A stretch of 64,000 nucleotides of DNA from Escherichia coli (GTDB lineage Bacteria; Pseudomonadota; Gammaproteobacteria; Enterobacterales; Enterobacteriaceae). This document shows positions 16,512 through 16,990 of this stretch, one piece after another. Made by a program: the position numbers and the translations under genes. The notes under the pieces are model-generated. The model was not told where the DNA came from. It ran no database searches and saw only the letters and a list, made by a program, of their open reading frames with translations. The stretch is from assembly GCF_003334815.1 (NCBI RefSeq), contig NZ_QOWO01000005.1. One strand, written 5' to 3'. The first letter of the stretch is position 1; each line of letters opens with the position of its first letter.

Positions 16512-16853
16512 TTACGCGACCTTTTTTGCACGCTCTTCACGGCGTGCCAAATATTCAGCCACTGTTTCAATCCGTCCCAATTCTTCCTGGGTGCGCATGT
16601 TGTTTTCAACTTCCCAAAGATCAACCGCCGCCTGGAGGTTTAGCCAAAAATCGACTGTGGTATCAAAAACTTTCGCCAGACGAAATGCCATCTCAGTAGT
16701 GAGTTTACGATTGTTATTGATCAGTGCACTGACGCTATTACGATGAACATGCAGCAACTCTGCTAACTCATTGATTTTCAAATCGAACGGTTCCAGATAT
16801 TCATAGAGAAGAATATCTCCGGGTGTCGTCGGTTTTCTTGTTGCCTGTTTCAT
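16512..16853 (-). CDS. ybaQ: XRE/HigA-like HTH protein (113 aa)
   Basis: Trimmed from ORF 16512..16907 to ATG (complement 16851-16853) MKQATRKPTTPGDILLYEYLEP... Confidence 0.85.
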   Translation of the reverse strand: MKQATRKPTTPGDILLYEYLEPFDLKINELAELLHVHRNSVSALINNNRKLTTEMAFRLAKVFDTTVDFWLNLQAAVDLWEVENNMRTQEELGRIETVAEYLARREERAKKVA

Positions 16854-16990
16854 GGTTTTTAACTGTTGCTTCCTTGTGAATAGCGATGCAAGAACATACT
16901 GAATCATACAAACACATTAAACAAGTCTCCAACTCCATTTGCGCCATCCCTCACCGCGCGCTAGCATGATATTTCACAAAGGGAGGTCGT

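Follow-up and report, generated by a model that had tools for sequence, protein, structure and literature searches.

What is an antitoxin gene doing where no toxin gene adjoins it? The question is raised by ybaQ in the window, the 64,000-nucleotide stretch of Escherichia coli DNA analysed here. An earlier note on this DNA had read ybaQ as an orphan antitoxin-like regulator, hemmed in by a repeat array and by ybaP with no space for a HigB-like toxin gene. Our analysis indicates that ybaQ in the window very probably survives, as the antitoxin gene, from a type II toxin-antitoxin module, higB-1/ybaQ, that has decayed: its toxin gene has been lost and its operator has degenerated.

The finding of a solitary antitoxin is correct but already known from published work. 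[quoted passage not shown] Rousset et al. (bioRxiv 10.1101/2020.05.25.114553) found ybaQ essential in 5 of 18 strains, only strains of phylogroups B2 and F with higB-1, and explained this by a conserved antitoxin that has mostly outlived its cognate toxin, higB-1 persisting in B2/F alone. According to the literature a delta-ybaQ K-12 strain is viable and the gene dispensable in K-12; a 2025 screen still has ybaQ as ‘partially characterized’. Three points go beyond the accounts cited here: the operator of the module, which several genera and phage-plasmid D6 have in conserved form, has degenerated in the toxin-less allele; that allele is common to sister Escherichia lineages; and D6-like phage-plasmids have a close relative of the module as their addiction system.

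The locus and its protein

The window comes from the E. coli chromosome and is near K-12, with a single mismatch to MG1655 in the 901 bases from 16150 to 17050. The plus-strand gene copA (13692-16196) is followed by a REP/BIME array (16197-16511) that reaches to the 3′ end of ybaQ. The ybaQ coding sequence (16512..16853, minus strand) encodes 113 amino acids plus a stop, its ends (TAA stop at 16512-16514, ATG at 16851-16853) being fixed by the open reading frame and its translation. An intergenic stretch of 137 bp (16854-16990) separates it from ybaP (16991-17785, plus strand, ATG at 16991). The earlier placement of ybaQ between the array and ybaP, 137 bp from the latter, thus proved exact.

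Two parts of the intergenic stretch need to be distinguished. The ybaP-proximal part (16929..16990, plus strand) is common to all alleles, whether toxin-bearing, toxin-less or without ybaQ, and is near-identical across six compared loci that include those of E. coli CU532-9, E. coli TUM2330 and Escherichia sp. E1V33. The part closer to ybaQ (16860..16928, minus strand, 69 bp) is specific to the toxin-less allele.

The array 3′ of ybaQ consists of dispersed elements: a BLAST query spanning this stretch matches E. coli genomes at a median of 32 places each, and Rfam naRNA4 (nucleoid-associated RNA 4 / CssrE) matches REP elements in it at 16308-16385 and 16409-16486, as well as one farther along the window at 23547-23624. 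The toxin-bearing B2 allele of strain MS8345 lacks the array, its gap between copA and ybaQ being 57 bp, and among sister lineages the array varies in length. On the other side of the locus the small RNA gene sroB (17784-17867, minus strand; Rfam RF00368, 82.1 bits) lies between ybaP and ybaK; Rfam finds it too in toxin-carrying loci and in loci without ybaQ. Elsewhere in the window Rfam identifies the dnaX programmed-frameshift element (31651-31715, minus strand, 96.8 bits) and the small SRP RNA (48519-48615, minus strand, 68.1 bits).

YbaQ itself belongs to the HigA family. It scores 103.5 bits against NCBIfam TIGR02607 (antidote_HigA), for which the curated cut-off is 47.7, and has an XRE-type helix-turn-helix (HTH) DNA-binding domain at residues 16-70 (16644..16808, minus strand; Pfam HTH_3, PF01381, 5.5e-10), so the likeness to HigA/XRE antitoxins that had been noticed from the letters alone holds up in profile searches. 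RefSeq annotates the gene, under the protein name ‘HigA family addiction module antitoxin’. In a PDB search YbaQ matches its own deposited crystal structure, 2EBY, at 1.5e-70; the next relatives are antitoxins of HigBA type, namely 3TRB (VapI), 6F8S/6F8H (GraA), 2ICP/2ICT (HigA) and 4MCX (HigA). The HTH helix segment HVHRNSVSALINNNRKLT is almost unchanged in toxin-linked YbaQ homologues.

The sole difference between the window and MG1655 in 16150-17050 changes Leu23 of YbaQ to Phe (window position 16787, codon 23). Every other allele examined has Leu at this residue, as does 2EBY, and strain 52F4 alone among the matches listed is 100% identical to the window.

The protein ends in RREERAKKVA (16515..16544, minus strand, read from the sequence), and these last ten residues are probably the ‘YbaQ tag’. 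The C-terminal tag of YbaQ is in wide use as an engineered ClpXP/ClpAP degradation tag (PMC6195910, PMC2907309), and a clpX null strain accumulates YbaQ protein (PMC8652233). YbaQ is detected in K-12 proteomics data.

Search for a toxin gene in the window

A partner toxin was sought in three ways. A tblastn search of the window with the cognate HigB-1 gave no match. A custom HMM of seven HigB-1 homologues, applied with filters off to all stop-to-stop segments of the six frames of the 64 kb, gave a best E-value of 2.9. Eight small open reading frames around or overlapping ybaQ matched no NCBIfam family. The claim that ybaQ is solitary here is borne out, these searches having turned up no open reading frame with a RelE/HigB fold next to it; in particular, the adjacent upstream PF05015 toxin gene that a complete HigBA module has in its operon is absent from the window.

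It might be argued that the partner was merely overlooked, as a small or unannotated reading frame in a flanking stretch or on the other strand, and mechanically called reading frames of 27-134 amino acids do occur within the BIME, immediately upstream of ybaQ and antisense to the gene. We consider this extremely improbable, since these candidates are without NCBIfam match, those in the BIME are REP repeats in translation, the six-frame HMM and tblastn found nothing, and ybaQ is dispensable in K-12. The reading can be taken as effectively refuted.

The same site in other strains

The state of this site elsewhere was assessed with a BLAST query consisting of ybaQ and the start of ybaP, run against 5426 complete E. 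coli genomes. Three states were found: the toxin-less arrangement of the window (3563 genomes), an arrangement with an additional ~330 bp between ybaQ and ybaP (1266, about a quarter), and absence of ybaQ (about 594). Strain MS8345, of ST131, illustrates the second state: its gene order is ybaQ, a toxin gene of 100 codons, ybaP. The toxin gene, annotated ‘type II toxin-antitoxin system RelE/ParE family toxin’, is on the same strand as ybaQ and ends 35 bp upstream of it; its product is a PF05015 HigB-like toxin (9.4e-32) with a match at 3.4e-14 to 6F8S_B, the chain of the GraT toxin. The synteny comparison thus places a PF05015 HigB-like gene directly upstream of ybaQ, at the site orthologous to that of the window, in the 1266 genomes of the second state. 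The earlier reading as an orphan regulator is thereby supported and also sharpened: ybaQ is a true relic of a toxin-antitoxin pair.

The toxin gene of CFT073 is annotated as frameshifted, and the higB-1 match of Nissle 1917 (302 bp, 99.3% identity) equals that of CFT073, which suggests that Nissle 1917 may carry the same lesion. A ‘partial higB-1’ in E. coli HS-02 (locus L015, 1500-1800) was discarded as an artefact of a poor long-read assembly with poly-A and poly-C runs, where the annotation is ‘hypothetical protein’.

One RefSeq YbaQ protein, WP_000806442.1, is found in K-12 MG1655, in MS8345 and in CFT073. Because K-12 and B2 YbaQ share this identical accession, it is implied that K-12 YbaQ would retain its antitoxin capacity.

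In a scan of one genome per species, eight distant relatives of ybaQ (36-82% identical) were found in Trabulsiella, two Enterobacter, E. albertii, two Escherichia sp., Sodalis and a Caldilineaceae MAG; a HigB-1 homologue is directly upstream in all eight, and none of the eight adjoins copA or ybaP. At two of these loci (L010, 2621-2925; L011, 2653-2940) the HigB homologue appears frameshifted and the downstream antitoxin reading frame is intact. Such broken toxins would amount to recurrent decay with the toxin going first, on the evidence of single draft assemblies in which sequencing error is possible.

The upstream segment and its promoter

Pairwise alignment to MS8345 places the junctions of the two alleles ~8 nt upstream of the ybaQ ATG on the left and at ~16929 on the right. 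Between them lie 69 bp in the window (16860-16928) and about 400 bp in the B2 strain, the latter comprising higB-1 with its promoter and a spacer.

The origin of the 69 bp was examined by several alignments. The segment is only about 50% identical to the B2 promoter/leader; its global alignment to that region beats 489-496 of 500 shuffles (4-11 of 500 score as well), and other scoring schemes, applied with other promoters, give z values of 0.3-3.0. In a multiple alignment it is colinear with nine toxin-linked higB promoters and shares with them ACTTG, GTG, a -10-like hexamer and an AAGGA ribosome-binding motif. Three sister Escherichia lineages have the segment at 91-96% identity. The 69 bp probably represent the promoter and leader of higB-1, now degenerate, fused to ybaQ and driving it directly, a reading for which the alignments give modest support. 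The change at the locus is not a clean deletion: identity to the B2 promoter is only ~50% and the homology is statistically weak, so that part of the stretch could be foreign or rearranged. A derivation from the 3′ end of higB-1 plus spacer, suggested by one MAFFT run, is not supported: 66-89 of 500 shuffles score as well.

A consensus scan predicts a sigma-70 promoter for ybaQ at 16903..16931 (minus strand), TGGAGA-17-TATGAT, with 9 of 12 consensus matches. The multiple alignment yields an alternative predicted promoter, TTGTTT-17-CAGTAT, 7-8 nt downstream, which is positionally homologous to the higB-1 promoter TTGCGC-17-TACAAT. The ybaQ ATG in the window is without a Shine-Dalgarno sequence at normal spacing; AAGGAAG stands ~15-21 nt upstream, with an A-rich stretch between (16854-16880). 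In toxin-bearing strains AAAGG is found ~8 nt upstream of ybaQ.

The operator

Toxin-linked promoters were compared from E. coli B2, Trabulsiella, Enterobacter, Escherichia spp., E. albertii, Sodalis and phage D6. All nine share the core AATGCACTTGCGCACAGTGCATnAGTGCGCTATnAT, in which four GTGC/GCAC half-sites overlap the -35 element and spacer of a TTGCGC-17-TAnnAT promoter. Mean pairwise identity over this 34-nt core is 81%, though the proteins are only 61-82% identical. A YbaQ motif in the higB-1 promoter, and overexpression of higB-1 on ybaQ knock-down, have been reported (Rousset et al., bioRxiv 10.1101/2020.05.25.114553).

At the aligned position the window reads GAGACTTGTTTAATGTGTTTGTATGATTCAGTAT, with 47% identity; of 24 near-invariant operator/promoter columns it keeps 13 and has changed 11. 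The autoregulatory operator of the module promoter thus appears to be missing from the window by sequence, and a search of the 64 kb found no operator-like site elsewhere. From this we infer that the toxin-less allele would be without autoregulation through the ancestral operator. In sum, YbaQ is a protein of the HigA family, and its locus lacks two features of a HigBA module, the adjacent toxin gene and the operator.

Relation to phage-plasmid D6

The addiction module of phage D6 is annotated as the gene pair D6_70/D6_71, of which D6_70 is 80% identical to HigB-1 and D6_71 is 74% identical to YbaQ (84 of 113 residues). The promoters of D6 and of the B2 chromosomal module have the operator core TGCACTTGCGCACAGTGC in common. 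The HTH helices of YbaQ and D6_71 are near-identical, and it is the C-terminal third of the antitoxins that diverges most. Directly downstream of the D6 higB/higA pair, and in plasmid pB2C_96 too, there is a further gene, D6_72 (locus L018, 2269-2628), annotated as a HigA-family antitoxin of 119 amino acids, with 23 of 135 aligned positions identical to YbaQ.

A toxin with 80-90% identity is encoded on about 92 PLSDB plasmids, those among the matches listed being 89-96 kb in size, and D6-type higB is on 63 plasmids in complete E. coli genomes. Chromosomal higB-1 co-occurs with at most 2 of these 63 plasmids, about 15 being expected (binomial 1e-5, ignoring phylogeny). Host range, sampling or an incompatibility between the modules could lie behind this deficit.

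The concept of anti-addiction was reportedly described by Saavedra De Bast and co-workers in 2008. Since the D6 module is so closely related (80% and 74%, same operator core), solitary YbaQ could be an anti-addiction factor, one that would repress and/or neutralise an incoming D6-like HigBA and so make loss of the element non-lethal. The near-identity of the HTH helices, the many plasmids with a related toxin and the scarcity of genomes with both modules all fit this idea, which we nonetheless regard as rather unlikely. The 20-26% divergence, greatest in the C-terminal third of the antitoxin, may insulate the pairs from each other; the co-occurrence skew is confounded by phylogroup and sampling; and the recorded host of D6 is E. 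coli C600, which has the toxin-less ybaQ allele, so that YbaQ is no bar to carriage. It is likewise unlikely that most E. coli keep toxin-less ybaQ against D6-like HigBA, with operator loss freeing its expression from autorepression and rendering YbaQ constitutively available.

Maintenance, loss and direction of change

The toxin-less arrangement is found in three sister Escherichia lineages, whose copA is 93-95% identical to that of the window. In two of them ybaQ is 96-98% identical to the window, above the 93-95% of its flanks. Among toxin-less ybaQ alleles dN/dS is 0.07-0.19, on few substitutions. With the toxin-less allele in 3563 E. coli genomes and in sister lineages, and dN/dS this low, we conclude that ybaQ is kept without its toxin, as the gene of a ClpXP-labile HTH DNA-binding protein.

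What it is kept for is a further matter. After toxin loss YbaQ may have kept, or acquired, chromosomal target promoters of its own and been retained for regulation. ChIP-exo in K-12 validated YbaQ as a DNA-binding candidate and derived a motif for it (Gao et al. 2018), ybaQ expression shifts under several conditions according to secondary reports, and purifying selection acts on the gene where the toxin is missing. On the other side, the papers cited here report no target gene or phenotype, the 2025 screen has the gene as ‘partially characterized’, the 64-kb window has no operator-like site, and about 594 genomes have dispensed with the gene. Such domestication as a transcription factor is accordingly a possibility that we hold tentatively, short of considering it probable.

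Loss of ybaQ, in the genomes without the gene, came about by at least two independent events. In E. coli O4:H5 CU532-9 (locus L002, 2460-2540) an internal deletion joins the last 21 nt of ybaQ to an upstream segment of the toxin-less type; the antitoxin was therefore lost from an allele already without toxin, which fits the expected order of decay, toxin first and antitoxin later. In E. coli TUM2330 (locus L003, 2143-2512) and in 347 genomes a G+C-rich segment stands in place of ybaQ and the BIME, and ~270 bp of the TUM2330 replacement segment is a dispersed repeat with a median of three places per E. coli genome. In Escherichia sp. E1V33 the chromosomal toxin-less ybaQ (locus L008, 3001-3340) has a C-terminal frameshift; a 94.6-kb contig of the same strain bears a D6-like higB/higA pair that is complete.

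These losses, by deletion in CU532-9 and by repeat replacement in TUM2330, together with the frameshifted C-terminus in E1V33 and the dispensability of the gene in K-12, would suit a neutral relic, functionless and decaying slowly. We think it unlikely that ybaQ is no more than this, given that its amino-acid sequence is identical in K-12 and toxin-bearing strains, that dN/dS is low even if few sites bear on it, that ybaQ exceeds its flanks in conservation in the sister lineages and that the protein is detectably expressed.

As to direction, we infer that the event was loss of the toxin and not its gain. Because the toxin-less allele occurs in sister Escherichia lineages, simple parsimony allows the opposite history, in which B2/F gained the toxin. 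That history is less likely, because HigB-1 (80%) and YbaQ (74%) are about equally distant from the D6 pair, as a co-evolved pair would be.

Proposed history and its implications

The explanation that we favour, decay of a higB-1/ybaQ module by toxin loss, can be set out as follows. In the intact module, as in phylogroups B2/F, other enterobacteria and phage-plasmid D6, a single promoter would drive the gene of the RelE-fold toxin HigB and then ybaQ. YbaQ would repress this promoter through the four half-site operator and presumably neutralise the toxin, while ClpXP would turn YbaQ over. In the allele of the window the toxin reading frame and most of the spacer are gone and the operator has degenerated, and ybaQ would be transcribed alone from the remaining or a remodelled promoter. 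K-12 YbaQ, unchanged, still made and dispensable, would then act only as a small, short-lived DNA-binding protein of XRE type.

The value of the case is mainly for annotation and teaching. It illustrates an order of decay in toxin-antitoxin modules, the toxin first and the antitoxin kept or lost later, and it shows with ybaQ and higB-1 that the ‘essentiality’ of a core gene can hinge on an accessory neighbour.

Comparison with known systems

Among the solitary antitoxins of RASTA-Bacteria (PMC2374986), YbaQ is the very E. coli example named, and our case does not differ from it. GraTA of Pseudomonas putida (6F8S/6F8H) is a more distant relative: YbaQ matches GraA (6F8S_A) at 5.4e-10 and HigB-1 matches GraT (6F8S_B) at the value given above. 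The toxin-first gene order is common to higB-1/ybaQ, to GraTA and to other HigBA modules with a PF05015 toxin; GraTA is distant in sequence, and the window, unlike GraTA, is without the toxin partner.

The D6 module has the same operator core as higB-1/ybaQ and a near-identical HTH. It differs from the locus in the window in being on a mobile element, in being complete and in having a second, unrelated HigA-family gene (D6_72) downstream.

Closest is the higB-1/ybaQ module of B2/F, which occupies the same site between copA and ybaP and has an antitoxin identical to that of K-12 (WP_000806442.1), from which the window differs by L23F. Compared with it the window lacks the toxin gene (303 bp), the conserved operator and all but a small part of the 35-bp spacer; in their place the window has the diverged 69-bp segment, and 3′ of ybaQ it has gained a BIME.
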